Positions 13,711 to 47,488 of a DNA stretch of 50,968 bases are shown piece after piece. Source of the DNA: an uncultured Candidatus Saccharibacteria bacterium (lineage in GTDB: Bacteria; Patescibacteriota; Doudnabacteria; UBA920); contig CAZVXT010000001.1 of NCBI GenBank assembly GCA_964631145.1, forward strand, positions 1-50,968, written 5' to 3'. The position numbers were made by a program, and so were the translations under genes. The notes below the pieces were generated by a model, which worked only from the letters and a program-made list of their open reading frames with translations, was not told where the DNA came from and searched no databases. Each line of letters starts with the position of its first letter. The first letter of the stretch is position 1.

Positions 13711-13775
13711 AACAACCTCCTTACTGAAATTAATCAGTTTTTTTCAAAGATTTAGTCTTACGACTTTGTGAGCAT

Positions 13776-13804
13776 AGTATACATAATTTCTATACAAATG
13801 TCAA
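13776..13804 (-). promoter_or_regulatory. Consensus sigma70-type promoter TTGACA-17-TATACT for the 13710 gene
   Basis: Direct reading of the minus strand. Confidence 0.8.
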
Positions 13805-13820
13805 GAGCTAAGATTGTTAC

Positions 13821-13863
13821 TAAATAATAAAAGCACTCAATATAGATAAGTGCTTTGTTTAAA
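13821..13863. repeat. 43-bp imperfect direct repeat / terminator, left copy
   Basis: taaataataaaagcactcaatatagataagtgctttgtttaaa; the last 18 nt are identical to the copy at 16600-16641. Confidence 0.8.
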
Positions 13864-13864
13864 T

Positions 13865-14995
13865 TCAAAATTCTAAACCAAATATATGATTAAGAAACCA
13901 AAGATCAAAATCACCTGGAACCTTATATGATCTAATAATCTTAAACATTCTATTCAAGTAATCTCGATTTAATATAGTAGCCACCTCATCTATCTCTACT
14001 TTATGGTCATTAGATATATTTTTTTGCAAATATTTAATACATAATTTAACATAATGCAGATCTTTGAGCATAATAGCTGATTCATTTGAATTCCATTTAG
14101 AACTTAGTGCTAATAATCCCCTAATTTCGTTTACATTGCTAAATATATCAAACACTGATTCTAGTTGTAAATTTTTGTGCAAGGCATCAGTTTTGTTACA
14201 CCGAAGAAGTGGATGAATAATAAATCTAAACCTTAAATTTTTTTTCAACATTTGTGTAATCAAGACAACCCTAATCGCTTTATTAAGATTATTAGGTGAC
14301 AAAACCATCACAATTTCATCTACAGACTGAGGTGCGATAAAATTAATATATGTGGACCAAATAAATTCTGTATCATAACTTATTTTTCTTTGACTTCGAG
14401 AAATAATATATGGAAATTCACATAGCGAATAATAATCCTTTTCTGCTTGTAATTTATATTTTGACGGTAATATAATATTTAAATCTGTATTTGCATCAAA
14501 ATTTAAGATTTTTACACTTTGTTTTTTAAAGTCTAATCTCTGCATGCAAAACTTGCACTTTGGATCACTAGATGTTCCTACTACTAAATTTTTATTACTA
14601 TTATTTATAAAAAAATATTTTTCTAAAAAACTTATAGGTATTTCTACCTTACCACATTTACACCAAGCCATATCTAATTCTTTGCTTTCAATAAAATTAT
14701 TACTATTTAACAACTGTAAACATTCCTTGAAATAATATTTAAATTTTAAAGAGCCATCGTGATCAGCTGTATTAAAATTTATATACAAAGTGTTTAATTG
14801 TTTTTTGTATAGTTCAAATAACAATTGTTGCTTTTTACTATCAAAAGTTGTTTTCATACCCACAGTATTGCAAAACATAAAAAATGGCGTATGACTTACT
14901 CGTGAAATAACATCTGCAATAAAAGGTGTATAGAACCTTAAAAGTGGAGATGACGAAGAAGGTGTAATAGGCAAAGTCGTAATTATTCTATTCAT
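13865..14995 (-). CDS. Class I aminoacyl-tRNA synthetase (MetRS-like) catalytic-fold paralog with degenerate HIGH/KMSKS
   Basis: Colinear with MetRS landmarks by eye: IITTLP, FIADVISR, Zn-knuckle WCKC...CKFC, IISR, HPLLRC, EIRGLL. HIGH and KMSKS are absent. Confidence 0.6.
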   Translation of the reverse strand: MNRIITTLPITPSSSSPLLRFYTPFIADVISRVSHTPFFMFCNTVGMKTTFDSKKQQLLFELYKKQLNTLYINFNTADHDGSLKFKYYFKECLQLLNSNNFIESKELDMAWCKCGKVEIPISFLEKYFFINNSNKNLVVGTSSDPKCKFCMQRLDFKKQSVKILNFDANTDLNIILPSKYKLQAEKDYYSLCEFPYIISRSQRKISYDTEFIWSTYINFIAPQSVDEIVMVLSPNNLNKAIRVVLITQMLKKNLRFRFIIHPLLRCNKTDALHKNLQLESVFDIFSNVNEIRGLLALSSKWNSNESAIMLKDLHYVKLCIKYLQKNISNDHKVEIDEVATILNRDYLNRMFKIIRSYKVPGDFDLWFLNHIFGLEF

Positions 14996-15054
14996 AATTT
15001 CCTCCTAACTATGTGATTTGATACAATAGTACTAAATCAACAAATTTTGTCAAT

Positions 15055-15765
15055 ATGAAAACCTTACTAAAAAACTTCTATCACAATAAATGCTATGTCG
15101 AATATCTGCTAAACGAATCCAGCAATGCAATTATTTTACTAGATGGATTACCAACCAAAATTCAACGCGAAAAATTAATTTTTGAATTATCTAAATATGG
15201 TTATTCAGTATTTTATCCTCACTATATAGGAACTTGGAAGAGTAAAGGAGAATTTCTAGATCACCCCCCTACCAAAGAAATAGATGATTTGATTACGTTA
15301 CTTCTTAACAATTTTAAAGAAAACAAAAAAATTTTGCAGATCAATATTATTTCTTCTAGTTTTGGATCAGCTATAGCATCTTGTTTATCAAACATGGAAT
15401 TTATAAATAAATCTGTATTACTCTCGCCGGTTTTAGATTTTACAAAAGTTCATGGCATTTCTACTTTAGAACAATATTTAAGGGATAATTATAAAAATGA
15501 ATACCGCTTCAAATCTTACAATTGGGAAAAGCTAGTAAACAACCAAATCATTAACCCAGCAAACGTCCTTAAAAATTCTAATTTTAAAACAAAATTTAAA
15601 ATTTTCGCAGGAAAAGAAGATGTGCAAATAGATATTAATTATTTAAAAAAATTTTCAAAAAATAATAACATTGCTTTTGAAAATATAAAAAATATAGGAC
15701 ACTTATCTTATTCTAAAATAGATAAACCAATGCTTGAGAAGATATTAAAATGGCTAAAATCTTAG
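15055..15765 (+). CDS. Alpha/beta hydrolase
   Basis: LLDGLP oxyanion segment, GYSVFYPHYIGTWKSKG, nucleophile elbow SSSFG, GKED acid, IGH His. Confidence 0.8.
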   Translation: MKTLLKNFYHNKCYVEYLLNESSNAIILLDGLPTKIQREKLIFELSKYGYSVFYPHYIGTWKSKGEFLDHPPTKEIDDLITLLLNNFKENKKILQINIISSSFGSAIASCLSNMEFINKSVLLSPVLDFTKVHGISTLEQYLRDNYKNEYRFKSYNWEKLVNNQIINPANVLKNSNFKTKFKIFAGKEDVQIDINYLKKFSKNNNIAFENIKNIGHLSYSKIDKPMLEKILKWLKS

Positions 15766-16479
15766 CCTTTTATTTTTGTACAATTGTAAGTAATTAAAAT
15801 ACAGTTCCGTTTTTATTTCTAACCAATGATTAGATTTTATATCGCTATATTGAATAAATAGCAATTTCTTAATTTTAGATGAAAAGATTTGAGATTTTGC
15901 AATATATTTTTCAATAATTTCTAGGTGAGAATACATGTTTATATCAGAATATGAAATATTATTTTCTATTAACATCATATCTATACATATGCGCATAATA
16001 TATTTTCGAAAAAATATTTTCCATTTATCATCACTACTATATAAATAACTTTTATTAAGCCTCCAAAAATATTCTTCGATTTGAAAAAGCAAGGACTGCT
16101 CTTCCTTATGCTTATCCAAAAAGTTAAGCTTATTTAAAAAATAGTTATTTCCGATAATACTTTGAGCAGTCGCCAAATACTTAAAGAAAAAAGTGCCATG
16201 GTTTCCATGTTGAAAATTTTTTACCCCTTTAACTTCTATAATACTTTTATACTGCAACGAAATATCGACTATATTATATGATTGCAAACAAGCTCTTAGT
16301 TTTATTAAGTCGTCGTCATGAGGTAGATCTAATAATAAATAAAAGTCCAAATCTGAATCTTGGGTAGTATTTTTATTCGTTGCTCCAGATCCATAAAATA
16401 GAAAGTCTACAACCCTATCTTTACCATACAGACTAACCACTTCTTTTATAAACCTATCTAAAAAAAATTCTTTTGGCAT
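15754..16479 (-). CDS. Pol-beta superfamily nucleotidyltransferase with helical C-terminal domain
   Basis: FLFYGS...DSDLDFYLLLD signature. Confidence 0.8.
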   Translation of the reverse strand: MPKEFFLDRFIKEVVSLYGKDRVVDFLFYGSGATNKNTTQDSDLDFYLLLDLPHDDDLIKLRACLQSYNIVDISLQYKSIIEVKGVKNFQHGNHGTFFFKYLATAQSIIGNNYFLNKLNFLDKHKEEQSLLFQIEEYFWRLNKSYLYSSDDKWKIFFRKYIMRICIDMMLIENNISYSDINMYSHLEIIEKYIAKSQIFSSKIKKLLFIQYSDIKSNHWLEIKTELYFNYLQLYKNKRLRF

Positions 16480-16599
16480 TTAATAAAATTTTTAATTTAA
16501 AATAAGCAATTTTTAACCTATTTATATCATTTTATATGCCTAAATGCAAAGTCTATCGTATGATATTTAGCAATATCAATACAATATGATGCAATAGAT

Positions 16600-16641
16600 T
16601 AAATAACAAAAACACTTATATAAATAAGTGCTTTGTTTAAA
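16600..16641. repeat. 43-bp imperfect direct repeat / terminator, right copy
   Basis: taaataacaaaaacacttatataaataagtgctttgtttaaa. Confidence 0.8.
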
Positions 16642-16643
16642 AT

Positions 16644-18042: not shown

Positions 18043-18109
18043 AATACTTTAATTTTATCATGAAGTTTATGGCAAATAAATAAAAACCCGCCGGAGCGGG
18101 TTTTATACT

Positions 18110-18625: not shown

Positions 18626-18670
18626 TTTTGTTTCTTAATTAGTTAACTTTTTTATATTATATCATGACTA

Positions 18671-19750: not shown

Positions 19751-19825
19751 TTTTTATTTTTATCACTTCTACTACGATTATAGCACAATAAAAAAAGGAA
19801 AGCATTAAAAGCTTTCCTTTATCAT

Positions 19826-20671
19826 TTATTTTAGAGCTACCAAATTTTGCTTTATAGATTCTTCAAGCACCTGCGCTCGAAGTTCCATAACAACTTTGCT
19901 AGAACCTTCAAGTTCTGCAATATCTCGCAAAACTTTTGGTAATAATTTTGGTTTACCAATGGAAACTAGATAATTTTGAGCTTTTAGATCTGCGGCAATT
20001 TCTTGCCGTATACGGATTAAAGCCGCTTGGTCTTTAGTTATTGTTTTATTATTAAGCCATGATAGCACAATAACTCTTTTTAAAGAATCAGCGGGATCAT
20101 GACTAACTTCATGAACAAAAACTCCCATTAAAGTTTCGTCGGTTGACTTTAAATGCTTTTTGATAAAGTCTTCTCTTATCAAAATAACACTTCCAAATAC
20201 CATCGACGGTTTTAAAATACTCAAAATTTGATCCTTATCTAGATTTTGTTTATTCATTTCTTCTTTTGCAGCATTATTAATTTTGGTTGTATCAATAATT
20301 TTGTAAGAAAAAGATTTAAACTTTTCTAATGGATCAAGGTTATTTGCTATGGTTTTGTATTCTACTCCATAATCAATATGGGGTAGGGAATAAATCCCGA
20401 ACCAAAACGCATAATTATCTAACATTTTTTTGTTATTCTCTGAGACCAAATTTTGGTTTTCAGAGACAAATTTATCCATTGCTTTTTCATACTTTTCCAA
20501 ATCTAAAGAAGAATCTTGGATAATTATTTTATAAGCGTTAATTGTTTTTTGCAACTCCGCCCTTGACTCTGCATCGGTAAGAGAATTAGAATATGATGAA
20601 TCAAAACTTTGACCATCAATTACAACTAAAGCCAAAAAAACAACGAATAAAACAAAAATAACATTTTTCAT
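19826..20671 (-). CDS. Secreted zincin-like metalloprotease candidate (start revised to the ATG at 20671)
   Basis: GGAGGG 5 nt before the ATG; signal peptide; HEVSH followed by EIAAD (M48/M56-like third ligand); terminator at 19794-19820. Confidence 0.65.
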   Translation of the reverse strand: MKNVIFVLFVVFLALVVIDGQSFDSSYSNSLTDAESRAELQKTINAYKIIIQDSSLDLEKYEKAMDKFVSENQNLVSENNKKMLDNYAFWFGIYSLPHIDYGVEYKTIANNLDPLEKFKSFSYKIIDTTKINNAAKEEMNKQNLDKDQILSILKPSMVFGSVILIREDFIKKHLKSTDETLMGVFVHEVSHDPADSLKRVIVLSWLNNKTITKDQAALIRIRQEIAADLKAQNYLVSIGKPKLLPKVLRDIAELEGSSKVVMELRAQVLEESIKQNLVALK

Positions 20672-20739
20672 ATTCCCTCCACTACCGATTGCCAAATCGG
20701 TTTGATTTTAAAGATTTAAGTCCTAAGACTATTGAACCA

Positions 20740-20768
20740 AGTATACACTATTTTTATAAAACTGTCAA
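20740..20768 (-). promoter_or_regulatory. Consensus promoter TTGACA-17-TATACT, homologous to the one at 13776-13804
   Basis: Direct reading of the minus strand. Confidence 0.8.
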
Positions 20769-20879: not shown

Positions 20880-21272
20880 TTATGCAGCAGGAGTTTCTTC
20901 TGGTGCTGATTCTTCAGCAGGAGCTTCAGCTACCTCTGGAGTAGATTCTTCTGCAGGCTTTTCTTCAGTTGCAGCAGGTTCTTCTGCAGGAACTTCTTTT
21001 TTAGGTAAAGTAAAAGATTTTACTTTTGGTGCATCAATCAATTTGTTAGTAACAAATAAATTATGAACTGTTTCAGAAACTTCTACGTGTTGTTCTTTAA
21101 GCCAGTAATTTAGACGTTCTTGATCTTTGATTAATAAAGTTTTGGTATGAGGGTTGTAAGATCCTAAAACTTCAACAAATTGCTTTTGAGCAGCTGTGGT
21201 CTTTTTTGCTAAAACCACTTTATATTGAGGCATATTCTTCTTACCACCACGGAGTAATCTAATAGTTAACAT
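20880..21272 (-). CDS. rpsP: 30S ribosomal protein S16 with acidic Pro/Ala/Glu C-terminal extension
   Basis: MLTIRLLRGGKKNMPQYKVV...VEVLGSYNP...RLNYWL. Confidence 0.95.
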   Translation of the reverse strand: MLTIRLLRGGKKNMPQYKVVLAKKTTAAQKQFVEVLGSYNPHTKTLLIKDQERLNYWLKEQHVEVSETVHNLFVTNKLIDAPKVKSFTLPKKEVPAEEPAATEEKPAEESTPEVAEAPAEESAPEETPAA

Positions 21273-21476: not shown

Positions 21477-24113
21477 TTAACTAGCCTTTGCGTATGCAGA
21501 AGCCTCATCCAATTTAATAGATAACAATTGAGAGGCACCGTCATCCCCCATAGTTACCCCATAAATAATCCTAGCCTGAGACATGGTTTCTCGATTATGA
21601 GTGATAGTAATAAATTGAGTCTGATGGGACAGCTTGCCTAATATCTGACCAAATCTAATAGTATTAGCTTCATCCAAAGCTGCATCTACTTCATCCAGAA
21701 CTACAAAGGGTGAAGGGAAGCAAGTTAGCAAACTACATAGCAATGCTATGGAAGTAAGAGATCTTTCACCGCCTGATAAAGATTGTATAGAAGACAGCTT
21801 TTTCCCTGGCGGAGTAGCTTTAATATCTACCCCAGCAACATGTAATCCAGCATTTTCATATTTAGCGACAATTTTTTCTTCGGGTCGAAGTTTTTGATTT
21901 TCATCCATTGATTCTGATTCCTCTTCAACCCCCTCTGCTTCCGTCTTATCTTCGTTTGGTTTAACTAAAGCTAAATGAGCCTTCCCTCCGTTGAATAGCA
22001 TCTTAAAGTATTGCTCGAATTTTTCATTAACCTCATGAAAAGCTTTATTAAACTGCTCTTTAATATTACTATCCAGCTCGTCCATTACGCTACGCAAGTC
22101 ATCTATACCCTTTTTAAGATCTAGCACTTGAGACTCTAAACCCGTAAATCTGGCTTCGGTTTCTCGGTACTCTTGAATAGTTAATTCGTCCACCCCGCCA
22201 ATCATTTCTAGCTGATGTTTTAACTTGGCAATTTTATCTGACAAACCCTCTTCTTGTAATTCAATTCTTACTTCCTGAATCTTTTGCAAACCCACTTCTG
22301 ATAACGAACCAATTATTTCTTGTTCTAATGTTTGATTCTGAGTTTCGATTCTTGCTTTTTCTATCTCGAGTTTTGTTTGATCATCTCTTAAACTCGAGAC
22401 ACTGCTTTGAACTAAACGAAATTCTTTATCTGCTTCTTGTAACTGTTTTTTTATATCCTGTTCGCTGTTATAAAAATTGTTAATTTTATTTTCTAGGGAT
22501 TGTTGTATTTTTAACTTATCTTCAATTTGTGATTGTAGTTTTTGCTTAGCCTGCAGTGCATCACTGACAAATTCATCACTTGCGCCCGTGGCAATTCGCT
22601 TTAATTCTAACTCAACCTGCAATAAATCTTTCTGTAAAGTTTGATGTTTATTAGTCAAAAATTGTTGCTCAGCTCTGATCTTAGAAATTTCACTGCTAAC
22701 CCTATTTTGCTCTGACAATAATTGATCTTTTTGATCCCCTAATTCTTTAAGAGATGCTTTTAGCTGCTGTAAGTTTTGAGCAGTTTCATTTGGCTTTCCT
22801 AAAACAACTTCTAGTGCCCGCCAGCTTTTTACCAAGCTTCCCGCCTGATGTTTGATAGTCAAAATATCTTCCGCTTCTTCTAAGAAACTTTCAAATTCTG
22901 ACAAGCTCCTTCCAAAATGTTCAACCTTGCCTTGTACTTCTTGCCACTCTAAATTATTACCATCATGTCCTGAAGAAGAATTAGAACTCTGATACAATAA
23001 ATCAATTTGATTATTAAGGTCAGAGATAGTTTGAGCAAATTTCGCCTGAGCAGATTCCAAAGTTTGTAATTTTTCAGATAATCCAGATAATTCTTGTACG
23101 GTTATCTGCAGATCTTGCGTAATTTGATGTTGATTTATTTCTAAAGAACCTTGGTCTCCACTAGTAGTTTTTAAATTATCAAGTTTTCCTTGAATAAGAC
23201 TGACTTGTTCTAATAAAGCATTTTTTTCTTTTACTATGGATTGCAAATCTTCTTGATCACGACGAACAGATAATAAAGAATCTGAGGTTGCTGCTTCATA
23301 ACTTTCTACTGCTTGTAAATGAGCAGAAATTTTTTCTTCTAAAGAATTTCTTTCAGCTTGCAATGCACTAATTTTGGAATTAATATTTTGCAAACTAGAT
23401 TGATGTTGCCACCACAAATAACCCAAATGTTTGTGCAAATATCCTTGTAATTCATTTTCCAACTCAGCCCTTGCCTCCATACGCTTTGCTTGTCGTCTTA
23501 AAGATTTTACACGAGGTTCAAGCTCTCTCATCAAATCTTCTGCACGCATCAAATTTTGCGCTGTCTGCTCTAATCTGCGCATCGATCTATCGCGCTTCAT
23601 ATAATAAACCTTAACACCGCTTGCTTCATCGATTAGATTTTTTATTTCTGAAGGTCCGGCTAAAATCATTTGATCGATTGTCCCTTGTCCAATTACAGTA
23701 TAACGTGAGGTTCCAATATTACTCTTCAATACAAGATCAATAATATCTAAAAGCCTTGCTCTATTGCCATTAATTAAATACTCGCTTTCTCCACTACGAC
23801 TTACTCTTCGTCCAATAGAAACCTCTGCGCTATCAATAGGGATTTTTCTGTCCGCATTATCAAAAGTCGCGATCACTTCTGCAAAGCCAGCACGTGAACG
23901 CTTGTCGCTTCCTGCAAAAATTACGTCTTCACTTTTTTTGCCGCGCATCATCTTTGCACTTTGTTCACCAAGAACCCAACGCAAACAATCAGCAGAATTG
24001 CTTTTACCACTTCCGTTTGGTCCAACAATCGCAGTAATACCAGTTTCAAACTCCATTATAGTCTTTTTGGCAAACGATTTAAACCCTTGAATTTCTAAAC
24101 GTTTTAAGTACAT
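21477..24113 (-). CDS. smc: SMC chromosome partition ATPase (short, 878 aa)
   Basis: MYLKRLEIQGFKSF, Walker A GPNGSGKSN, signature LSGGE, Walker B VVLDEVDAALD; follows rnc. Confidence 0.93.
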   Translation of the reverse strand: MYLKRLEIQGFKSFAKKTIMEFETGITAIVGPNGSGKSNSADCLRWVLGEQSAKMMRGKKSEDVIFAGSDKRSRAGFAEVIATFDNADRKIPIDSAEVSIGRRVSRSGESEYLINGNRARLLDIIDLVLKSNIGTSRYTVIGQGTIDQMILAGPSEIKNLIDEASGVKVYYMKRDRSMRRLEQTAQNLMRAEDLMRELEPRVKSLRRQAKRMEARAELENELQGYLHKHLGYLWWQHQSSLQNINSKISALQAERNSLEEKISAHLQAVESYEAATSDSLLSVRRDQEDLQSIVKEKNALLEQVSLIQGKLDNLKTTSGDQGSLEINQHQITQDLQITVQELSGLSEKLQTLESAQAKFAQTISDLNNQIDLLYQSSNSSSGHDGNNLEWQEVQGKVEHFGRSLSEFESFLEEAEDILTIKHQAGSLVKSWRALEVVLGKPNETAQNLQQLKASLKELGDQKDQLLSEQNRVSSEISKIRAEQQFLTNKHQTLQKDLLQVELELKRIATGASDEFVSDALQAKQKLQSQIEDKLKIQQSLENKINNFYNSEQDIKKQLQEADKEFRLVQSSVSSLRDDQTKLEIEKARIETQNQTLEQEIIGSLSEVGLQKIQEVRIELQEEGLSDKIAKLKHQLEMIGGVDELTIQEYRETEARFTGLESQVLDLKKGIDDLRSVMDELDSNIKEQFNKAFHEVNEKFEQYFKMLFNGGKAHLALVKPNEDKTEAEGVEEESESMDENQKLRPEEKIVAKYENAGLHVAGVDIKATPPGKKLSSIQSLSGGERSLTSIALLCSLLTCFPSPFVVLDEVDAALDEANTIRFGQILGKLSHQTQFITITHNRETMSQARIIYGVTMGDDGASQLLSIKLDEASAYAKAS

Positions 24114-24182
24114 TTTAAATATAATTACTCATTTATTATAACATGCAAGCATAAAAAATAAGGATCCGAGGATCCTTTTTTG

Positions 24183-25007
24183 TTAACAAATCGATTTATA
24201 TATTTGCAGGTCTGTTAAATTATATAAATCTTTAAATAGCCTTAAAACTTTTAGTTTATGTTTTAGCCATTCGTCTGTATATAAACTGTTTTTTATAGAA
24301 AGTTTTTCCCACACCCTACTAATGGCTTGTTCTACAGCCTGTTTTTTTACAGCTAATATATCAGCTACTTTTTGATAAGTTGATATTTGTCCAAAATTAA
24401 CTTCTATAATGCCGTAATAATACTTAAATTTAATTTTATCTTTTATAGATTTAACCGAATCTAAGCATTTGATAAAACACTTTGTTTTTTCAAATAAATC
24501 AGGAAGCTCTATTAACAAGTCAACAAAATAATTATAAGTTTTAAGCGTGTTGTGACACTTTTTATAATCATAATTAATTAGTTGTCCGATAATATATTCT
24601 GGAGTATCTCTTATAACAATTTTTTCTGAAAGATTTAATTGTTCTGCGAGTTCTTTAAATGAAGGATATTCTCCAAAATTTTGAAAAGCTTTATTAGCAA
24701 TGGCTGCGATTTTTCTTTTTCTAGCTAATATGTGCGACGGGTAATTAATCACCCCACCATGCATATAATAATTGAGTATAGAATTTCTAATAATATTATA
24801 AGCATAGGTAGAAAATGATGCTCCCAAACTTTCATTATATCCATCATAAGCCATTAGCAAACCTATTCTCCCGCTTTGATAAGCATCTTCATCACCTTTC
24901 AAATGCGGAAAGTTTCTTTTTACTACATAATGAATTAAAGGTTCGTTTTGTAATACAAACTCTTCTCTAGCATTATGTTCTGTTAAGTTTTTTGGGTTGT
25001 TTGTCAT
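24183..25007 (-). CDS. Sigma-70 family (SigB/FliA/phage-like) alternative sigma factor
   Basis: Region 2 DAYQSGRIGLLMAYDGYNESLGASFSTYAYNII, region 3 PSFKELAEQLNLS, region 4-like TYQKVADIL; own promoter, SD and flanking hairpins. Confidence 0.8.
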   Translation of the reverse strand: MTNNPKNLTEHNAREEFVLQNEPLIHYVVKRNFPHLKGDEDAYQSGRIGLLMAYDGYNESLGASFSTYAYNIIRNSILNYYMHGGVINYPSHILARKRKIAAIANKAFQNFGEYPSFKELAEQLNLSEKIVIRDTPEYIIGQLINYDYKKCHNTLKTYNYFVDLLIELPDLFEKTKCFIKCLDSVKSIKDKIKFKYYYGIIEVNFGQISTYQKVADILAVKKQAVEQAISRVWEKLSIKNSLYTDEWLKHKLKVLRLFKDLYNLTDLQIYKSIC

Positions 25008-25192
25008 AATTCCTCCTTAAGAATCAAACTATATAATAATACGCAATATTGGTCGAAGTCAATACAAAACAAAACCGCCATGTTTTAGCGGTTTTGTTTG
25101 CTTTGTGTTTGTTTGGTTACTCGGATACTATCCTATTTAAGATTAGCACACCGAAATACATACACAAACCAAGTTATCAACAATTTTATTAA

Positions 25193-27040: not shown

Positions 27041-28921
27041 TTAATTACCGGTTACTTCTTGAGGAAGTTCTTCAGTAAATTCATCATTTAACTTTTTGCC
27101 GGCAGGGATAATTGGCTTAACAATTGCAGTAAATTCTTCTTGTTCTAATGTTTCTTGCTCTACTAATTTTGTTGCTATGACATCCAAATAACTACGGTGA
27201 GTAGTCATAACTTCAGTAGCTCTCTTTGCAGCGGTTTCCATAATTGCTTTTACTTCAGCGTCAATCTGCTGCGCAACCGCTTCACTATAATTTTTTCTCT
27301 CGCCTAAATCACGTCCTAAGAAAACATTATCATGAGGCTCACCCAACATAACTGGTCCAAGCGTTTCGCTCATACCGTATTGAGTAACCAATTTACGAGC
27401 CATATTAGTTGCCACTTTAAGATCATTACTTGCACCAGTTGTCAGTTCTCCAAAAACTAATTTTTCTGCAGCCCAACCACCCAATAATGCAGCAATCTCA
27501 TCCAAGAAGCTTGATCGAGTGTGCATATGTCTATCTTCTACCGGAAGCTTCATTGTATAACCAGCAGCTCTTCCGCGAGATAAAATAGTAACCTTATGCA
27601 CAGGATCAGCTTTCGGTAAAACAGATCCAACCAATGCATGACCACCTTCGTGATAAGCAGTAACTTTTTTCTCTTCGTCTGACAGCACATGACTTTTACG
27701 AGCAGGACCTAGAGTAACTTTTTCAATAGCTTCTTTTAGATCATCAGTTGTTATAGAAGTTTTATTACTACGCGCTGCTAAAATTGCAGCTTCGTTGATG
27801 ATATTTGCAAGGTCAGCGCCAGAAAAACCTGGTGTACGTTGTGCTATCTTTCTTAAATCAACATTTTGATCAAGAGGCTTATTTTTACTATGAACTTTAA
27901 GAATTGCTTCGCGATCATGGATGTCTGGTAAATCTAAAACAACTTGCCTATCAAAACGACCTGGGCGAAGAAGAGCAGGATCAAGAACATCAGGACGATT
28001 AGTTGCAGCTATAACAATTACATTTGTATCTGTTTCAAAACCATCCATCTCAACCAATATTTGGTTTAAAGTCTGTTCTCTTTCATCATGTCCACCGCCT
28101 AGCCCAGCCCCACGCTGTCTTCCCACGGCATCGATTTCATCAATAAATACAATGCATGGCGAGTTACGCTTTGCTTTTTTAAATAAATCTCTCACTCTAC
28201 TAGCACCTACACCTACAAACATTTCTACGAATTCTGATCCAGAAATATGAAAGAATGGAACGTTTGCTTCACCTGCAACGGCTCGAGATAATAAAGTTTT
28301 TCCAACACCAGGATTACCTAACAATAACACCCCTTTTGGAATTTTTGCGCCGAGCGATAAAAATTTTTGCGGAAACTTTAAAAACTCAACAATTTCTTGC
28401 AATTCTTCTTTAGCTTCTTTTGCCCCTGCTACATCAGCAAACCTAACTTTATTTTTCATTTCATCAGATAGCTTAACCGATGATTGTCCAAAAGTTAATG
28501 CTCTGTTATTAGAACCTTGAACTTGACGCATTAAGAAAAATATAAACAATGCAATTAAAATAAACGGTACCAAGAACGGCAACACTGATCCAGCTAAAAC
28601 TGTTAAAAAGCTTGTGTTCTTAAATTCAATTTTTACTTTACTAATTTGATCAGTACTAACTCCGCTATCAATAAAATATTGTGGTATATCTGTATTACCA
28701 CCGATGGTTGCGGTTAATTTATCGTTAGTATCTTTAATTTTAATATCTAATGTTTGAGGGTTAACTCTGATACTTTCTACTTTTTCTTGTTTGATCAAAG
28801 AAGAAACTTCTGATAAAGGAACGTCTTTAGTTTGGTTATCTTTTGTTAATCCAGCAACAGCAACAGAAACAATTAATAATCCAATTAAGACCAATAAAAT
28901 ATTTTTTGTAATTTTTCCCAT
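27041..28921 (-). CDS. ftsH: ATP-dependent zinc metalloprotease FtsH
   Basis: Two TM helices; GNPGVGKT; FIDEID; [13 protein letters not shown]; HEGGH. Confidence 0.98.
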
Positions 28922-35542: not shown

Positions 35543-35552
35543 TTTCGTTATT

Positions 35553-36446
35553 TTATAAGCTTTTTAAAAATGCTCGAAAATCATCTTGCAAATCTTGGTG
35601 CTTAAGTCCAAATTCCACCACAGCTTTCAAATACTCTAATTTATTACCGCAATCATAATAACGACTATTCTGTATTTCTATTGCATAGGTTTGTTTACCA
35701 TCACGCAGCATAATATTCATGCCGTCTGCCCAATATAATTCTTCAGGAGTATTTCGTTGTTGCAATGCATACATAGCTTCTTCCATTGCTGGAAAAATAT
35801 CAGGACTGAAAGCATAACCACCTACAACAGCATACGGGGAATCGATTATGCCTGGACCAGGTTTCTCAATAAATTTATCAATAGCGACAACTCCAGGTTT
35901 TTTTTCGTTACCAACAGCATATCCATACCTCTTATAATCTTCATCTTTGGTAGATCTAATAGCACCCAAAATAGCGCTACCACCGTGCTCTTCATATGCC
36001 TCTACTAATTGCTGAGAACGGGTTTTAGGAGATGCTTCAACAAACTCATCACCCCACAAAACTAAAAATGGTTCATTTCCCACAATATGTCTTGCATTCC
36101 ATATAGGTGTACCATTTCCCATAGGACCTTTTTGTCTAACATAATAAAAATTAGCCAAATTAGCAATATTTCTAATCTCTTCGAGTTGCTCATACTTACC
36201 AGCTTCTTCCAAGCGTTTTTCTAATTCAAAAGGGTAATCAAAATGGTCTTCAATATTACGTTTATGCCACCCTGTGACTAAAATAATATCTTCGATTCCA
36301 GCAGAAACAGCATCCTCAACTACATATTGAATAATAGGTTTATCAACCAAAGGCAACATTTCTTTTGGTTGTGCTTTTGTAGCAGGTAAAAATCTAGTTC
36401 CAAAACCTGCTACAGGTATTACAGCTTTTCTAATTTTTTTATTCAT
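35553..36446 (-). CDS. galU: UTP-glucose-1-phosphate uridylyltransferase
   Basis: KAVIPVAGFGTRFLPATKAQPKEMLPLVDKP; YDCGNK. Confidence 0.93.
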   Translation of the reverse strand: MNKKIRKAVIPVAGFGTRFLPATKAQPKEMLPLVDKPIIQYVVEDAVSAGIEDIILVTGWHKRNIEDHFDYPFELEKRLEEAGKYEQLEEIRNIANLANFYYVRQKGPMGNGTPIWNARHIVGNEPFLVLWGDEFVEASPKTRSQQLVEAYEEHGGSAILGAIRSTKDEDYKRYGYAVGNEKKPGVVAIDKFIEKPGPGIIDSPYAVVGGYAFSPDIFPAMEEAMYALQQRNTPEELYWADGMNIMLRDGKQTYAIEIQNSRYYDCGNKLEYLKAVVEFGLKHQDLQDDFRAFLKSL

Positions 36447-36484
36447 ACGTGCTTATTATAACACGCAAACATAAAATATTTAAT

Positions 36485-37990
36485 CTATTCTACGAATCTA
36501 TATTGTAAAGATTCTATCAAATGATGATCTCCTATTTGTTCTGAACTATCCAAATCTGCAATTGTCCGAGATACTTTTAAAATTTTACTAACACTTCTTG
36601 GCGAAAGATCATAAACCTCCACAGATTTAGCTAATAATTTTTCTGTATTATCGTCTAAACTACAAAACTGCTTAATTTGTTTAGAACTTAAATTACCGTT
36701 AGTCAAAATTTTTTTATGCCTATTATATTGTATAGAACGAGCAGCATTAACCCTCTTCTTAACTTCTGAGGAACTCTCGTTCGACAAATTAGTTCTTAAT
36801 TCTTCATACTTTAGTTTTGGCACAACAGTGTGTAAATCTATTCTTTCTAAAATCGGTCCAGATATTTTTTTATTATATTTAATTACATCCCAAGGTGAGC
36901 ACTTACATTGCTTGTCTTTATCTCCTGTTCCACCACATGGACATGGATTTTGAGCAGTAATAAAAATCAAGTCGCAAGGAAACTCTACTGACTGGTTAAC
37001 TCTTGAAATCAAGACATTTTTATTTTCTAATGGTTGTCTTAAAGATTCTATTATATGCCGCGGAAACTCAGGAAATTCATCCATAAACAATACACCTTTA
37101 TGAGCTAAACTAATTTCTCCCGGCTTCGGGCGCACACCACCACCAATTAAAGATATTTGAGAACAGCTATGATGAGGAGACCTAAATGGTCTACTCATAT
37201 AAAGTTTAGATAAATTGCCAAGCCCGGCTAAGCTATGTAAGTTAATAATTTCTATTATTTCTTCCAACAATAAATCTGGCAAAATACCAATAAAAGACTG
37301 AGCCAACATTGTTTTGCCAGAACCAGGTGGACCTATCATTCTCAAGTTATGACCACCCGCTGCCGCGATCTCCAAAACCCTTTTTGGAATTAACTGACCA
37401 GATATATCACTAAAATCAACTATTTCTAATTTATTATTATCTATCTTTTCCTGTACAAATTCTAAGGGTTTTAATCTAACCTGCTGAGTTAAATGTAAAA
37501 TTACTTCTTTCAAAGAATTAACCCCATAAATATTAATACTATCACCTAATATCATCGCCTCTTCAATATTATCGATCGGGATAAAAACTTCTTCAAAGTT
37601 AAGTTTTTTGGCTGCCAATAACATAGACAATACACCAACTGCAGGTCTAACCCTACCATCAAGGGCAAGTTCGCCGACAAACAATGAAGTGTTATTAACT
37701 GTTGGGATTAATTTTACTGAGTTTAAAATAGCTATGGCTATACCCAGATCAAAGTGACTACCGATTTTTCGAAGATTTCCAGGAGCGAGACTAATAGATA
37801 TTCTAGCAACAGGGTAATCATATCCCGTAGACCTCAAAGCTGATCTTATTCTCTCTTTACTTTCCTGCACAATTGTATCTGGTAACCCTACTATAATAGT
37901 GGCAGGCAAGCCATTAGATACATCAACTTCAATTTCTACCAATGAAGCATAATAACCAGCTAACGTTGCTGTTAAAACTTTTGATACCAT
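36485..37990 (-). CDS. comM: ComM/YifB Mg-chelatase-like AAA+ ATPase
   Basis: IVGLPDTIVQESKERIRSAL, GPPGSGKT, RPFRSPHHS, PGEISLAHKGVLFMDEFPEF, NPCPCG. Confidence 0.93.
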   Translation of the reverse strand: MVSKVLTATLAGYYASLVEIEVDVSNGLPATIIVGLPDTIVQESKERIRSALRSTGYDYPVARISISLAPGNLRKIGSHFDLGIAIAILNSVKLIPTVNNTSLFVGELALDGRVRPAVGVLSMLLAAKKLNFEEVFIPIDNIEEAMILGDSINIYGVNSLKEVILHLTQQVRLKPLEFVQEKIDNNKLEIVDFSDISGQLIPKRVLEIAAAGGHNLRMIGPPGSGKTMLAQSFIGILPDLLLEEIIEIINLHSLAGLGNLSKLYMSRPFRSPHHSCSQISLIGGGVRPKPGEISLAHKGVLFMDEFPEFPRHIIESLRQPLENKNVLISRVNQSVEFPCDLIFITAQNPCPCGGTGDKDKQCKCSPWDVIKYNKKISGPILERIDLHTVVPKLKYEELRTNLSNESSSEVKKRVNAARSIQYNRHKKILTNGNLSSKQIKQFCSLDDNTEKLLAKSVEVYDLSPRSVSKILKVSRTIADLDSSEQIGDHHLIESLQYRFVE

Positions 37991-38013
37991 TTCTAAATTA
38001 TAAAGAACCGTTC

Positions 38014-38451: not shown

Positions 38452-38454
38452 TTT

Positions 38455-39311: not shown

Positions 39312-39317
39312 ATATAT

Positions 39318-39346
39318 ATGATAACAGAATTTTTACTAAAAGTCAA
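39318..39346 (-). promoter_or_regulatory. Promoter TTGACT-17-TATCAT driving the ORF-less structured region
   Basis: Direct reading of the minus strand. Confidence 0.7.
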
Positions 39347-41489
39347 TATCATTTTGCAAAACTTTTACATTTTTTCTTAAACTCAATCTAAAAGTTAACT
39401 TAGACATTAAAATATTTAACAAAATTTGATCCAAATCTGTAAATTCATTTCTATATTTTTTATATACACAACTTTGGTAATAATTATTAACCAATTGTAT
39501 ATCCTTATTTAGCATTAAAAGCTGATCGCAATCAATTTGATACTTCTGTTTGACTATAAAATCGCTAGTTGCTAACAAAATACAACTATTAAATAATGAG
39601 AAGTTTCTAAATATTTTATTACCACTGCCCGAATAATCTTGCGCCAACACATGAGAAAATTGTTTTAGCTGTATATAATACTTTTTATAGAAATCCTTAA
39701 CCGATATAGCGCTATCAAAGATAACAGCTGTACTTAAAATATTATTTGTTAAATAATTTGCAAGATTATCATATGAAGATATGCTAATTGAATTATTTTC
39801 TAAATTTTTAGATTCCACAGCAATCTCTGTATCTAATCCTAGACGTTCGTTAATAAATAAAAGTGAATCGAAATTTAAAATATTTGTTGAATAAGCAGTA
39901 CTCTCAAATTTGAACCATAAATTTTTTAGAGTTAAGGCAATATCTAATGGTTGAGAGTAGATAAATATATTATATTTTTCTAAACTCGCCCATTTCAAAT
40001 AACCCTCTCTAAAATTAAACATTTCAGATAGATCAGCTTTCAATTTATTTAATATTTCTGGTAATAGCTTATTTGATAAAGAATCTAGTTTAACCAGAAA
40101 GTTGTTTACACTGTTCTGTAGCTTTAAATACTCATAGCTATCATCTTTATAAAAATCGTTTAGCGGGTACACTGCATACTGAGCTGTGATATTTTTGATT
40201 AAAGATATATGGAACAAGCCAAACAACAGATCTGCCTGAGCCAATAGATTTGCCAATAACCCTGCATCTTCCTCGGACAAACTCTCTTCTTCTCCAAAAG
40301 ACTTTTTTAAATTAAACAATAACCCCAACCAAGAAAGTCTCTTTTCTAATTTTGAAGTTACATAGTGTTCAAATTGAGTTATGTTGGAAATGATTAATCT
40401 ATAAAATTTAAAATCATCATTAGATGAAGATAGTCCCAGGAGTGTTTGATAGCTCATACATAAACTATCGGAGTTATAGTTTTCTTCACCACCAGTAATA
40501 AAACTTTTAAACTGCCCGCCGAAAAATGAAAGGTTTAAATCTAAGATTGTTTTACATTGCCAATTTGTTTCCTGCCAAACTAAAATTTTTAAAACAAATC
40601 TTAGTTCTTCTGAAGTTTGGGCATTGTAAAAAAATGAGTCGAATAAATTTTTGTTAAATAAATCAGAAGACCTAAAAACACCTTCTGCTGTTCCTGCTTT
40701 CCATAGATCTAAAACCTGTCTGTCTGAGGATACAGCTAAAACGTATTTACTTGATTTATTATTTAAAGAATTTGCCAACCTAAATTCGTGCTGAAAATTA
40801 TTTGCATCATATATTACCTGTTTATCAACACTCAAATCAACTTCTTCAGATTCAACTATTTCGTTTTTTAAAGAGTCTTGAAAAGTTTTTATATTTTTAA
40901 AGCTATAATTTTCTTCAAATAAATGTTGCCATGAAAAAATTCCTCTGCGCATTACGTTGCGCAAATTTTGTTTAAGTTCTAAACTGTAACTTGAAAAAAT
41001 ATTTAATAAATCGTTTAGAAGCAACGCGGTAGTAACAGCATCAGATAAAGCCCTATGACTTCCTGTATGTTTGATATCAAAATAGTGAGCTAGATTTTCT
41101 AAATTATAACTATGATGTGTGGGTAACAAAAATTGCACCAACTCTAACGTATCTATTACATTACCTGAAAGCTTTACACCTACACTTTCTAAAAATTTTA
41201 CATCTAAGGTTGGGTTATGTGCTAATAAAGTTTTGTCTGATAATTTTGCTGACAAAAATTCTACAAAATCTGTAATCTTAGGTGCTGCGTCTAACTCTTC
41301 CTGAGTGATGCCGGTAAGACCTAAGATTTTTTCATGAACTTCAATATCTGGTTGAAAAACCTGTTGCCATTTTTCTCCCAAAACCACACCTTCTTCAGTT
41401 ACATCAAAAAATACAAATCCAATTTCTAAGATCTGGTCTTTTTCTGGTTCGAAGCCAGTAAACTCTAAATCAATGCTGCAATATTTCAT
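39336..41489 (-). CDS. DEDDh 3'-5' exonuclease (DnaQ-like) fused to a degenerate DinG-like helicase region
   Basis: SIDLEFTG, LAHNPTLD, HRALSDA. The C-terminal ~500 aa show no Walker A or DEAH motif. Confidence 0.8.
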   Translation of the reverse strand: MKYCSIDLEFTGFEPEKDQILEIGFVFFDVTEEGVVLGEKWQQVFQPDIEVHEKILGLTGITQEELDAAPKITDFVEFLSAKLSDKTLLAHNPTLDVKFLESVGVKLSGNVIDTLELVQFLLPTHHSYNLENLAHYFDIKHTGSHRALSDAVTTALLLNDLLNIFSSYSLELKQNLRNVMRRGIFSWQHLFEENYSFKNIKTFQDSLKNEIVESEEVDLSVDKQVIYDANNFQHEFRLANSLNNKSSKYVLAVSSDRQVLDLWKAGTAEGVFRSSDLFNKNLFDSFFYNAQTSEELRFVLKILVWQETNWQCKTILDLNLSFFGGQFKSFITGGEENYNSDSLCMSYQTLLGLSSSNDDFKFYRLIISNITQFEHYVTSKLEKRLSWLGLLFNLKKSFGEEESLSEEDAGLLANLLAQADLLFGLFHISLIKNITAQYAVYPLNDFYKDDSYEYLKLQNSVNNFLVKLDSLSNKLLPEILNKLKADLSEMFNFREGYLKWASLEKYNIFIYSQPLDIALTLKNLWFKFESTAYSTNILNFDSLLFINERLGLDTEIAVESKNLENNSISISSYDNLANYLTNNILSTAVIFDSAISVKDFYKKYYIQLKQFSHVLAQDYSGSGNKIFRNFSLFNSCILLATSDFIVKQKYQIDCDQLLMLNKDIQLVNNYYQSCVYKKYRNEFTDLDQILLNILMSKLTFRLSLRKNVKVLQNDIDF

Positions 41490-41650
41490 ATAAGGTAATT
41501 ATAGATGATACCTAAAATTTATGTAATAGTCAATCAGTAAATATAAATCAAAAAAACTCGACTAAATTGCCGAGTTATATTTATAAAGAGTAATTAGATT
41601 TAAGAATAAAAATTTTTCGTGTTATTACTAAAATACAAAGTTTTATTATC

Positions 41651-41791
41651 TCAATTAGATCGGAAGAAGTTTGTATTACCTACTTGGGTAAATTCGACCA
41701 TAGTTAAACCACCGGGGTATGTAAACCTAATAGCTACAGTGTTTTGTGAATAATAAGATCCACCCTTAAAAATTAAATCTTGTTTTTTCAT
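41651..41791 (-). CDS. 46-aa small protein missed by the ORF track (MKKQDLIFKGGSYYSQNTVAIRFTYPGGLTMVEFTQVGNTNFFRSN)
   Basis: AGGAGG 5 nt before the ATG; downstream terminator aactcgg...cgagttttttt at ~41555-41580. Confidence 0.6.
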   Translation of the reverse strand: MKKQDLIFKGGSYYSQNTVAIRFTYPGGLTMVEFTQVGNTNFFRSN

Positions 41792-41861
41792 AATTGCCTC
41801 CTAAAAATTTTTATTAATATATCAGCATTATAAAAACACCGCAAGGGTGCTTTTATAATTA

Positions 41862-42920
41862 TTATTCTTCTTGCTCAATAGCTTTATTAGGTATTGACTC
41901 TCCGGATTTTAATTTGTCTCTAAGCTGTTTATCCACCTCTTCAAAAATATCTTTATGTTCTTTAAGAAATGTTTTAGCATTTTCTCTTCCTACTCCCAAT
42001 TTAACATCTCCAAAAGAATATGAATTTCCACTTTTACTAATAACTTCCATAAGCAATGCAGTATCTAGAACGTCACCGCTAGCTGAAATACCTTCGTTAT
42101 ACATAATATCAAATTCCGCTGCCTTAAATGGTGCTGCTACTTTATTTTTCACCACTTTTGCTTTAGTACGGTTTCCTATAATTTTATCTCCTGCTTTAAT
42201 CTGAGCAGTTCTACGAATTTCTACACGAACCGAAGCATAAAACTTTAAGGCGTTTCCACCAGTTGTAGTTTCTGGGTTACCAAACATAACTCCAATCTTC
42301 ATACGTATCTGGTTAATAAAAATAACAGTGGTATTGGTTTTTGAAATTATTGCAGTAAGTTTGCGCAAAGCTTGGCTCATTAATCTAGCTTGAAGACCCA
42401 TATGAGAAGCACCCATTTCACCTTCAATTTCTGCTCGAGGTGTTAACGCTGCAACAGAGTCTATAACTATCAAATCTAAAGCATTACTTCTTACTAAAGT
42501 TTCTGCGATATCCAATGCTTGCTCACCGCTATCAGGTTGGGAGATTAACAAATCATCTAACTGAACGCCAATTTTTTTAGCATAATCAGGATCAAGAGCA
42601 TGTTCTGCGTCAATGAAGGCTGCAAGACCACCGCGCTTTTGAACCTCTGCAATCATGTGCAAAGTTAAAGTGGTCTTTCCAGAACTTTCAGGTCCATAAA
42701 TTTCTACAATTCTTCCTTTTGGAATACCGCCAACACCAAGAGCCATATCCAAACTTATACTTCCAGTAGGGATTGCTTCAATATTTAACTTCTCGTTATC
42801 TGAGATTTTCATAATACTACCATCACCAAATTTATCACGAATTTGATCAATAGCATTTTCTACTGCAGCCATCTTACCATTAGAACTAATAGTTGTATTT
42901 TTTTTAGTTGCTTTAGCCAT
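41862..42920 (-). CDS. recA: Recombinase RecA
   Basis: [17 protein letters not shown]; [10 protein letters not shown]; [12 protein letters not shown]. Confidence 0.99.
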
Positions 42921-42930
42921 ATGTTTAAAA

Positions 42931-43968: not shown

Positions 43969-44016
43969 GAGTTTCTTAATTAAAAAAATAAAACCCCTTA
44001 GTTAAGGGGGTTTATT

Positions 44017-46257: not shown

Positions 46258-46302
46258 TTATTATAGCAGTTTTCTTTAGTTTGATAAGCAGACCAGCAAT
46301 AC

Positions 46303-46360
46303 TTGTCAAAATAATAAAAAATAGCTATAGTAATATGAAAATTTAACATTTGGAGGAAAT
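46303..46360 (+). promoter_or_regulatory. Promoter (TTGTCA-17-TATAGT) plus RBS block, copy 1
   Basis: 46311-46360 is identical (50 bp) to 47438-47487. Confidence 0.85.
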
Positions 46361-47374
46361 ATGAATAAAACCACGACTATAGAATTTTCAGAAGCTATAA
46401 AAAACGAAGGTCTAATTAACTTTGTTTCCAAAAATGCAAGCCTAATTGAACATATAAGAAACTATTGGTTATCAAAAATTGATCCTTTGATTGATTTCGA
46501 AGATGCTAAAAGAAGAGCTAGTTCAAATGGGTTTATTAGTTTTTGTTTTGCTGGCATTGTGACATGTGTAATATTATTGATACTTAGATACACCACAGAT
46601 CAAAATATGAATGATGGAATTGGAACTCTCCTAATAATTTTCACCACTGTCATTACCATATTGATTAGCTTTTCTATTTCAGCATGGTTTACAAAATATA
46701 TAGCTGCAAAGAAAATATTAGAAGATGAAGTTATAGAATACAATCAAAAAATGTCAGATTTAGAATTAAAAATTGCTAAACTTGATACAGATAAAGTTTT
46801 TTATTTGGAGTCAGCTTGTGACTTTTTAAGGAATAGTGTTTCTAGATCATTATCAGGGGAGCTAAAAAATTTACAAAACAAAGCCCAAGAATTTTATGAA
46901 AAACCAAACCAAATTTTAAAAAAAGATTTAGAAAATGCAAAAGCAATTCAAGACAAAATTAAAGCAGATAAAAACCACAGTGCTGATCTACAACAAATAA
47001 ATTTAATCATTGAAGAGATCAAATTAAGATTAAAAGAAAATCAAAATCAATTTGCCGATCTGGACTCCAAAATAATGCAAGCACAAAAAGCAACTTCAGC
47101 CATAGATGATCTTATTAATAAGCTAGAGGCAAGCAAGCAAATATTTAAAGATAAACTGGAAACACAAAAAGATATTGAATCTTTAACTAATAAGTTTTTA
47201 CTTGGAGAGTATCAATCTGTTTTAGCCAATAGTGCTTATCAAGAAATGGATAACTCTATAAATGAAGTGATAGATAAAATTAGACAGACTTTAGAACAAG
47301 TTGTTATATGTTATAACGAAGTTACAGGAAAGCAATTAAAAGCTTCGGATTTAAACCTTCAGCTTGTAGCGTAA
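46361..47374 (+). CDS. Hypothetical protein, 2 TM helices plus long coiled coil
   Basis: Hydrophobic segments at ~aa 57-76 and 86-112; Lys/Glu/Gln-rich heptads. Confidence 0.8.
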   Translation: MNKTTTIEFSEAIKNEGLINFVSKNASLIEHIRNYWLSKIDPLIDFEDAKRRASSNGFISFCFAGIVTCVILLILRYTTDQNMNDGIGTLLIIFTTVITILISFSISAWFTKYIAAKKILEDEVIEYNQKMSDLELKIAKLDTDKVFYLESACDFLRNSVSRSLSGELKNLQNKAQEFYEKPNQILKKDLENAKAIQDKIKADKNHSADLQQINLIIEEIKLRLKENQNQFADLDSKIMQAQKATSAIDDLINKLEASKQIFKDKLETQKDIESLTNKFLLGEYQSVLANSAYQEMDNSINEVIDKIRQTLEQVVICYNEVTGKQLKASDLNLQLVA

Positions 47375-47429
47375 TAATTTTTACAAAGGTATTTTAATTA
47401 ATACCTTTTTTTATTTTATTTGACCAGTC

Positions 47430-47487
47430 TTGCCAAGATAATAAAAAATAGCTATAGTAATATGAAAATTTAACATTTGGAGGAAAT
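47430..47487 (+). promoter_or_regulatory. Promoter (TTGCCA-17-TATAGT) plus RBS block, copy 2
   Basis: 50-bp identity with copy 1. Confidence 0.85.
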
Positions 47488-47488
47488 T

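Follow-up and report, generated by a model that had tools for sequence, protein, structure and literature searches.

The window analyzed here, the 50,968 nucleotides spanning bases 1-50,968 of contig C1 of an uncultured Candidatus Saccharibacteria bacterium, carries housekeeping genes whose starts lack a Shine-Dalgarno (SD) motif alongside species-specific genes that are preceded by GGAGG. The source genome (G000) comprises 981,724 bp in 7 contigs, with 34% GC and a completeness rating of 100%. We consider it probable that its genes fall into two kinds of unit, SD-independent conserved genes and about 160 SD-led, species-specific orphan cassettes that together form a resident class with fast turnover.

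Genes were called with our own hexamer model, yielding 1,021 genes (90% coding), with the first ATG taken as the start. The comparison used the whole genomes of two relatives, G022 from the same genus (a single closed contig, 943,189 bp, 44% GC) and G013 from another family of the same order (724,694 bp, 38% GC). Homologs were defined by tblastn (E < 1e-5, coverage > 40%); genes with a homolog in both relatives are referred to as core (n = 442) and those with a homolog in neither as unique (n = 405). G000 has the look of a Patescibacteria (candidate phyla radiation, CPR) genome. Its relatives have genomes of 0.6 to 1.3 Mb in which 16S rRNA matches are often fragmented, and the best matches of the G000 recA, at 63 to 72% identity, are scattered over Parcubacteria, Paceibacter, and Saccharibacteria.

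SD-led and SD-less genes in the window

The SD-led features of the window are the following, where ORF denotes an open reading frame.

13090-13804, minus strand: SD cassette; promoter TTGACA-17-TATACT (13804-13776), GGAGG at 13720-13716 with a 5-nt spacer, ORF 13710-13120 (196 aa, no Pfam match), terminator hairpin at 13114-13090.
13830-15053, minus strand: SD cassette; promoter TTGACA-16-TACTAT (15053-15026), GGAGG at 15005-15001, ORF 14995-13865 (376 aa), terminator at 13856-13830.
19794-20768, minus strand: SD cassette; promoter TTGACA-17-TATACT (20768-20740), GGAGG at 20680-20676 with a 4-nt spacer, ORF 20671-19826 (281 aa, no Pfam match), terminator at 19820-19794.
24160-25062, minus strand: SD cassette with a sigma-70-family gene; promoter TTGACT-18-TATTAT (25062-25033), GGAGG at 25016-25012, ORF 25007-24183 (274 aa, Sigma70_r2 and a weak r4 match), terminator at 24177-24160.
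41555-41801, minus strand: SD-led small ORF; GGAGG at 41801-41797, ORF 41791-41651 (46 aa), terminator-like hairpin at 41576-41555.
46302-47374, plus strand: SD cassette; promoter TTGTCA-17-TATAGT (46303-46331), GGAGG at 46352-46356, ORF 46361-47374 (337 aa).
47429-48570, plus strand: SD cassette; GGAGG at 47479-47483, ORF 47489-48541 (350 aa), terminator at 48547-48570.
1-6365, minus strand: giant gene; GGGAGGTGG, GGAGG at 6365-6361, more than 2,118 aa, truncated by the contig end, species-specific.

All seven GGAGG sites cited by the initial annotation of this DNA are present, five on the minus and two on the plus strand. Six precede ORFs of 196 to 376 aa and the seventh precedes the 46-aa ORF. 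An eighth, at 6361-6365 before the giant gene, had been overlooked. Each of the 7 called GGAGG genes in the window is unique, lacking a homolog in either relative, and none of the 23 core genes in the window has the motif. Across the genome there are about 20 intergenic SD-led ORFs of this small size (10 to 59 aa), counting the 46-aa ORF at 41791. SD pairing is stronger for the giant gene (-16.4 kcal/mol) than for any other gene in the window, and its ORF shares 11 nt with the core gene upstream of it (6345-6599); the GC content of the giant gene, at 42%, is above that of the genome.

The SD-less features, several of which have a -10 box close to the start codon, are as follows.

6800-9512, minus strand: rplS (6800-7180), an RluD-like gene (7183-8151), trmD (8388-9095), and a KH-domain, khpA-like gene (9186-9512); core, SD-less, A/T-rich upstream.
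20880-21272, minus strand: rpsP; core, SD-less.
21477-24113, minus strand: smc; core, TGtTATAAT at 24135-24140, predicting a leader of about 14 nt without an SD.
27041-28921, minus strand: ftsH; core, SD-less.
35553-36460, minus strand: galU; core, SD-less, extended -10 TGtTATAAT (36455-36460) with an 8-nt spacer to the ATG at 36446.
36485-38002, minus strand: 501-aa gene; SD-less, TATAAT at 37997-38002, exactly 6 nt upstream of the ATG, a predicted leaderless geometry.
39336-41503, minus strand: gene with a DEDDh exonuclease domain (717 aa); core, SD-less, TATAAT at 41498-41503, 8 nt upstream of the ATG.
41862-42920, minus strand: recA; core, SD-less.

The core gene names assigned earlier are correct for rplS, trmD, the KH-domain gene, rpsP, smc, ftsH, and galU, to which NCBIfam profiles align from residues 1-12, and for recA, and these genes do have A/T-rich upstream regions lacking an SD. 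The geometry of the galU start, with its extended -10 box and 8-nt spacer, is that expected of a leaderless or near-leaderless mRNA, the latter as had been proposed.

The ribosome-binding sites of the accessory genes had been described as near-identical, and they do share a consensus, but it is not repeated DNA apart from one case: a 59-nt module comprising promoter, leader, and SD is duplicated at 46302-46360 and 47429-47487 with 97% identity. The ORFs behind the two copies (46361 and 47489) are adjacent yet unrelated (BLASTP E = 7.5), and no other shared upstream module occurs in G000. A repeated mobile element bearing the ribosome-binding site was considered and ruled out, with this single shared upstream pair and 97% of SD proteins being singletons within the genome.

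Genome-wide distribution of SD motifs

Across 1,016 genes of G000, 164 (16%) carry GGAGG 3 to 11 nt upstream of the ATG. The position of the motif is sharply defined: among 1,015 first-ATG starts, GGAGG begins between -9 and -15 in 162, with a mode at -9, equivalent to a 4-nt spacer, and zero cases at -8. Spacers are mostly 4 to 9 nt, and none of the first-ATG starts has one of 3 nt or less, giving a hard edge. The sites share the consensus (T/A)AGGAGG(A)(A)(A)T-ATG, and T stands at -1 in 79% of SD genes against 59% of all starts.

The single 16S rRNA gene (C3:20448-21915), whose 3' end was inspected as the initial annotation had suggested, ends in ...GGATCACCTCCTTTCT, a canonical anti-SD with CCUCC complementary to the motif. 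The last 46 to 47 nt of the 16S gene are identical in several relatives, among them congeners that are poor in SD sites.

The motif is partitioned by gene conservation. GGAGG precedes 1.1% of core genes and 37.5% of unique genes, compared with 0.35% of 15,537 internal ATGs of G000 that were scored as background for a motif at SD distance, so that its frequency before unique genes exceeds background more than 100-fold. This decisively excludes the equal frequency before core and accessory genes that would have contradicted the split first noticed in the window. The corresponding figures for partial motifs are 2.5% (4-mer) and 4.5% (AGGA) before core genes, 4.7% and 1.2% before unique genes, and 2.8% and 1.8% in the background, placing partial SDs before core genes at about the background level. 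Genome-wide, the 164 GGAGG genes compare with 35 having a 4-mer and 31 having AGGA; the SD signal is therefore all-or-nothing rather than graded. Pairing energies calculated with the 16S tail give the same picture: 44% of unique genes reach -8 kcal/mol or lower compared with 4% of mock sequences, whereas the values for core genes are 6.8% and 2.7%, and at -6 kcal/mol core genes do not differ from mock sequences (12.0% in both).

GGAGG is rare before core genes inside operons and elsewhere, preceding 1/167 internal core genes (4-mer, 6/167) and 4/275 other core genes. Only 6 of the 164 SD genes have a G013 homolog by tblastn, compared with 458 of the 852 other genes (Fisher p = 1e-38), and 152 of the 164 lack a homolog in both G022 and G013. 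SD genes are dispersed along the genome singly or in pairs, which rules out prophage islands as a candidate explanation.

The same distribution recurs in the congener G022, where 123 of 947 genes have GGAGG, again with a modal spacer of 4 nt and a hard edge below it; 7 of these 123 have a G013 homolog (p = 5e-29), and 99 lack a homolog in both G000 and G013. G013 itself has only 13 SD genes. A simpler count of AGGAGG-N3-9-ATG gives 32 to 145 across 24 genus members smaller than 1.1 Mb; over 61 genomes sampled from the order the range is 19 to 145, G000 and two other genomes having the highest values (144 to 145); a 2.8-Mb, more contaminated bin of the genus has 304. The count exceeds reversed-pattern controls (about 7 to 53) in most genomes, several lying at the control level.

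Could the split be an artifact of wrong starts, false small ORFs, or chance GGAGG motifs? The gene caller is home-made, and SD genes are shorter (median, 158 aa versus 281 aa for core genes) and score lower. Against an artifact stand the sharp positional peak, the hard edge at a 4-nt spacer, and the excess over internal ATGs, and the homology contrast between SD and non-SD genes with respect to G013 is present in every length bin. NCBIfam profiles support the core starts, and alternative in-frame starts add GGAGG to at most 7 core and 31 unique genes, without rescuing SDs for the core class. Together with concurring independent promoter and terminator scans and with the replication of the split in G022, these observations effectively refute an artifact, to which we attach a negligible probability.

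Two further observations concern genes at the margins of this partition. About 10 core genes, such as those at C1:361947, C1:474342, C1:172484 (on the minus strand, with its start at 172933), and C2:65729, carry GAAAGGA(A) 6 to 10 nt upstream, a motif that would pair with the extreme 3' end of the 16S rRNA (UCCUUUC) as a weak second flavor of SD. Contig C4 (35,312 bp) has long co-oriented blocks of genes, none of its 36 called genes has a G013 homolog, and 1 of the 36 has an SD; the contig may represent an SD-independent phage or plasmid.

Cassette anatomy, content and probable turnover

The SD genes are complete promoter-SD-ORF-terminator units and not a ribosome-binding site alone. A terminator, defined as a hairpin and T-run at -7 kcal/mol or lower, follows 77% of SD genes but 32% of core genes, and the contrast persists where the downstream spacer exceeds 40 nt (88% versus 46%). 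Among genes with a locatable TAnAAT box, a -35 box with at least 5 of 6 matches is found for 37% of SD genes compared with 8 to 11% of core genes and 1% of the background, and the extended -10 TG shows the opposite trend, being present in 10% of SD promoters and 24 to 39% of the others. The best promoter matches of an independent scanner (11/12) and its terminators fall exactly on the window cassettes. The sigma-70-family protein encoded at 24183-25007 (minus strand), which is species-specific and matches a PHROG sigma factor, may read these -35-containing cassette promoters. Integron cassettes are promoterless ORFs that share a recombination site (attC) and form an array beside an integrase; the units are distinct from them in that they have their own promoters and are dispersed, and an upstream repeat is present only in one tandem pair; downstream repeats were not searched for.

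The cassette products are nearly devoid of recognizable domains. In Pfam and PHROG scans of 91 SD proteins and 79 non-SD unique proteins, which report families rather than member proteins, the SD proteins match 12 Pfam families (an estimated 9 or so proteins, about 10%) and the non-SD unique proteins match 66, including integrase, resolvase, and beta-lactamase types. PHROG families number 11 and 30, respectively, with no phage structural proteins among the matches of the SD proteins. Enrichment in hydrophobic segments, as might mark a membrane or secreted class, was not seen among SD proteins. The 376-aa window protein (ORF 14995-13865) has two distant homologs (P0002 and P0003) in 5.8 billion protein clusters and none in 24 congeners, and the 337-aa protein (ORF 46361-47374) has no homolog in the 5.8 billion clusters; neither matches a phage collection. 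Because the domain-bearing species-specific genes are mostly non-SD and the SD proteins are nearly domain-free, the SD is a mark of orphan genes in particular and not of accessory genes at large. The proposal that the motif marks accessory or cassette genes thus stands insofar as nearly all GGAGG genes lack homologs in the relatives and needs narrowing insofar as the marked class consists of orphans only. This orphan specificity, the organization of the cassettes as whole units, and the conserved strong SD of the core gene rpsU, described below, had all been missed by the initial annotation.

The cassettes occupy variable slots in an otherwise stable gene order. G000 and G022 are highly syntenic (568 reciprocal best hits), and 134 of 161 SD genes lie between flanking orthologs that also neighbor each other in G022. 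SD genes are found in 84 of 495 syntenic intervals of G000, and 26 of these 84 also contain SD genes in G022 (odds ratio, 7.6). This association reflects shared variable slots, as no additional SD association is seen when slots filled in both genomes are considered. For genes that fill a slot alone, lengths do correlate between the two genomes (rho = 0.73, n = 24), and some non-SD slot pairs are diverged orthologs. The idea that SD-SD pairs in the same slot are divergent positional orthologs was unsupported, such pairs scoring like shuffled sequences (z ~0). Eleven G000 SD genes do have a G022 homolog, at 23 to 51% identity; in 4 of the partners GGAGG is retained at a proper distance, and in 3 more it is partial or unusually spaced, compared with a baseline of 13%.

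The initial annotation had raised a common donor pool, phage or host, as one source of the motif. By this explanation the SD genes would be recent horizontal imports from SD-using hosts, phages, or plasmids whose signals came along with them. The textbook signals of the cassettes are typical of ordinary bacteria, the cassettes are species-specific and sit in variable slots, their coding score is below that of core genes, and the 13 SD genes of G013 are mostly much GC-richer than its genome. Base composition nevertheless follows the resident genome in both congeners: SD genes have 31.7% GC in the 34%-GC G000 (core, 35.4%) and 46.8% in the 44%-GC G022 (core, 45.2%). Nor do the genes resemble imports in content, with about 90% of SD genes lacking a Pfam domain, few PHROG matches of which none is structural, and two window examples that have no phage match and almost no homologs anywhere in the clusters searched. 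The species-specific genes that do look imported, integrases, resolvases, and beta-lactamases among others, fall in the non-SD class, and the all-unique 35-kb contig C4 carries its single SD among 36 genes. The observed numbers, 164 perfect against 35 partial SDs, are also not those expected from a donor mixture or from decay. We therefore read the cassettes, whose base composition matches the resident genome, as a resident flexible class and not as fresh imports from SD-using bacteria, and a common donor pool appears unlikely. In the 38%-GC G013, most SD genes have 50 to 60% GC (e.g., C1:66666-67250 and C5:28875-29804), an offset opposite to that of G000, where SD genes are slightly AT-richer.

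Predicted initiation modes and relation to known systems

Some core genes have a promoter element close to the start codon and no SD. TATAAT begins at -12 in 40 genes, compared with about 3 to 4 at adjacent offsets, and TAnAAT at -12 in 67; TAnAAT with a 6- to 9-nt spacer precedes 62 of 275 non-internal core genes. T and G are enriched at -15/-14 of the core genes with TAnAAT-N6, and these boxes are therefore taken as real extended -10 promoters at leaderless distance. A broader class that we initially defined as leaderless (TAnnnT with a 5- to 8-nt spacer, 239 genes) proved to be mostly noise, only the exact TAnAAT/TATAAT peak exceeding background. Internal core cistrons adjoin or overlap the preceding gene, with a median gap of 3 nt.

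These observations suggest how the two kinds of unit may be expressed. At about one-fifth of core unit starts, TGnTAnAAT lies 6 to 9 nt before the ATG, and the mRNA would begin at or beside the start codon, giving leaderless messages initiated in a 70S-type mode. Other first core genes would have short A/U-rich leaders without an SD, and for internal core cistrons the probable basis of initiation is coupling or unstructured, A-rich RNA; the four-domain S1 homolog encoded in G000 fits SD-independent initiation on leaders rich in A/U. An orphan cassette, in contrast, has its own -35/-10 promoter with a short leader and a perfect (A)GGAGG mostly 4 to 9 nt before the ATG of its ORF, and ends at an intrinsic terminator. 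We infer that the SDs are functional and that the cassettes most likely initiate translation through ordinary base pairing to the intact anti-SD tail of the 16S rRNA. Cassettes occupy the variable slots between syntenic core genes and turn over quickly between species, and we favor the view that the SD of this resident, rapidly replaced flexible class is maintained. Selective translation of the cassettes through SD pairing, the other option raised initially, is plausible because the anti-SD is intact.

Several points weigh against this interpretation. With 56% of unique genes lacking an SD, the motif covers part of the flexible genome and not the whole, and for only half of the SD genes can a TAnAAT -10 box be placed upstream. 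Sequence is the basis for every statement made here on transcription starts, leaderless mRNAs, and SD use; the gene calls come from a home-made hexamer caller with first-ATG starts, and "core" is defined by tblastn on two relatives. The figures on SD retention come from 11 homologous pairs, and the scarcity of homologs anywhere fits fast turnover without revealing the source of the orphan genes.

The principal exception among the core genes is rpsU, encoding bS21 (C1:234702-234938, outside the window), which has the strongest predicted SD pairing of the 442 core genes at -14.9 kcal/mol, GAAAAGAGGTGA, and a TTG start. The rpsU genes of both G022 and G013 have G(A/G)GGTGA, usually at 4 to 6 nt from a start codon that is mostly TTG or GTG, and the motif is kept in most of 29 rpsU loci sampled from six families of the order. 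The best Protein Data Bank (PDB) sequence matches of the G000 bS21 are gammaproteobacterial bS21 proteins of solved ribosomes. In Bacteroidota, rpsU SD pairing beyond -13 kcal/mol is characteristic (McNutt et al. 2023, PMC9976891), and in Flavobacterium a strong rpsU SD marks autoregulation of bS21 by ribosomes that lack it, the anti-SD being otherwise sequestered (PMC9976891; PMC7797042).

This precedent suggests a specialized-ribosome regulon, a possibility to which we assign a low likelihood. In such a system bS21, with bS18 and bS6, would hide the 16S tail on the 30S platform, as in Bacteroidia, and ordinary ribosomes would ignore SDs, with the core genes having lost theirs, while ribosomes lacking bS21 would read SD-led mRNAs, with rpsU and the roughly 160 cassettes co-regulated by bS21 supply. 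The SD would be an address label, the 16S tail being normally unavailable and bS21-poor ribosomes translating rpsU and the SD-led orphan cassettes; we hold this, too, to be rather doubtful. The rpsU pairing tops that of all core genes and lies beyond the Bacteroidota value (PMC9976891), its motif is conserved in most of the loci sampled as well as in G022 and G013, and an anti-SD has been kept though core genes do not use it. A generally blind ribosome is, however, hard to square with 16% of genes having a perfect SD, and the SD-like sequences of core genes are not below the mock level, unlike in Flavobacteriales, where such sequences are depleted (PMC9976891) and rpsU is essentially the sole SD gene. 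The bS21 of G000 also aligns best with its gammaproteobacterial counterparts. We know of no structure or biochemistry of any CPR ribosome, which likewise counts against this proposal. A specialized ribosome would refine the reading of two gene-unit kinds that we prefer, and both can hold together; if the address label were real, the flexible genome would be a translationally separate regulon switched by ribosome composition.

With the two kinds of unit as we describe them, the partition spans promoter type, ribosome-binding site, and terminator jointly, core genes lacking the textbook signals and orphans having all of them. GGAGG provides a one-line sequence marker with which to recognize the flexible genome in these uncultured bacteria, and gene finders that learn just one start model will miscall one of the classes. 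The partition is relevant to the design of CPR expression vectors, makes separate translational channels for housekeeping and accessory genes a testable idea, and, through the conserved rpsU site, ties CPR to the bS21/anti-SD story of Bacteroidia.

Mixed initiation modes in one genome are already known, but a near-complete partition by gene age or conservation was not found in the literature searched, and full-text searches returned no paper on an SD split by core versus orphan genes in CPR. In their organization the cassettes recall phage morons, the autonomous promoter-gene-terminator units between conserved phage genes described in the literature of the Hendrix laboratory. Both are single-gene units with their own promoter and terminator that lie between conserved syntenic genes and vary among relatives. 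Unlike morons, the units described here lie among the housekeeping genes of a cellular chromosome, with no prophage and no phage protein signatures, and their defining mark is a translation signal absent from the surrounding genes.

Leaderless and SD starts also occur side by side in the group C genomes of GeneMarkS-2, from Actinobacteria and Deinococcus-Thermus (Lomsadze et al. 2018, PMC6028130), and G000 resembles them in having a Pribnow box at leaderless distance (6 to 8 nt) before some first genes and SD-led starts elsewhere. In group C, however, it is the normal gene complement that uses the SD, at internal positions of operons and at first genes with a leader (PMC6028130), whereas here just 1 of 167 internal core genes has GGAGG, leadered core genes are SD-less, and the SD class is defined by orphan, species-specific status and not by operon position.

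Bacteroidia, with their SD-blind ribosomes and rpsU (bS21) autoregulation (Jha et al. 2021, PMC7797042; McNutt et al. 2023, PMC9976891), share with G000 a retained anti-SD, SD-less core genes with A-rich upstream regions, and an exceptionally strong and conserved rpsU SD. They differ in that 16% of genes here have a perfect SD, SD-like sequences are not depleted in the core, and the bS21 sequence is not Bacteroidia-like.

Some Parcubacteria have lost the anti-SD altogether (Tsurumaki et al. 2022, PMC9297842) and, like G000, represent CPR lineages that rely little on SD pairing. G000 and its relatives differ from them in keeping the canonical tail, together with a gene class that appears to use it.

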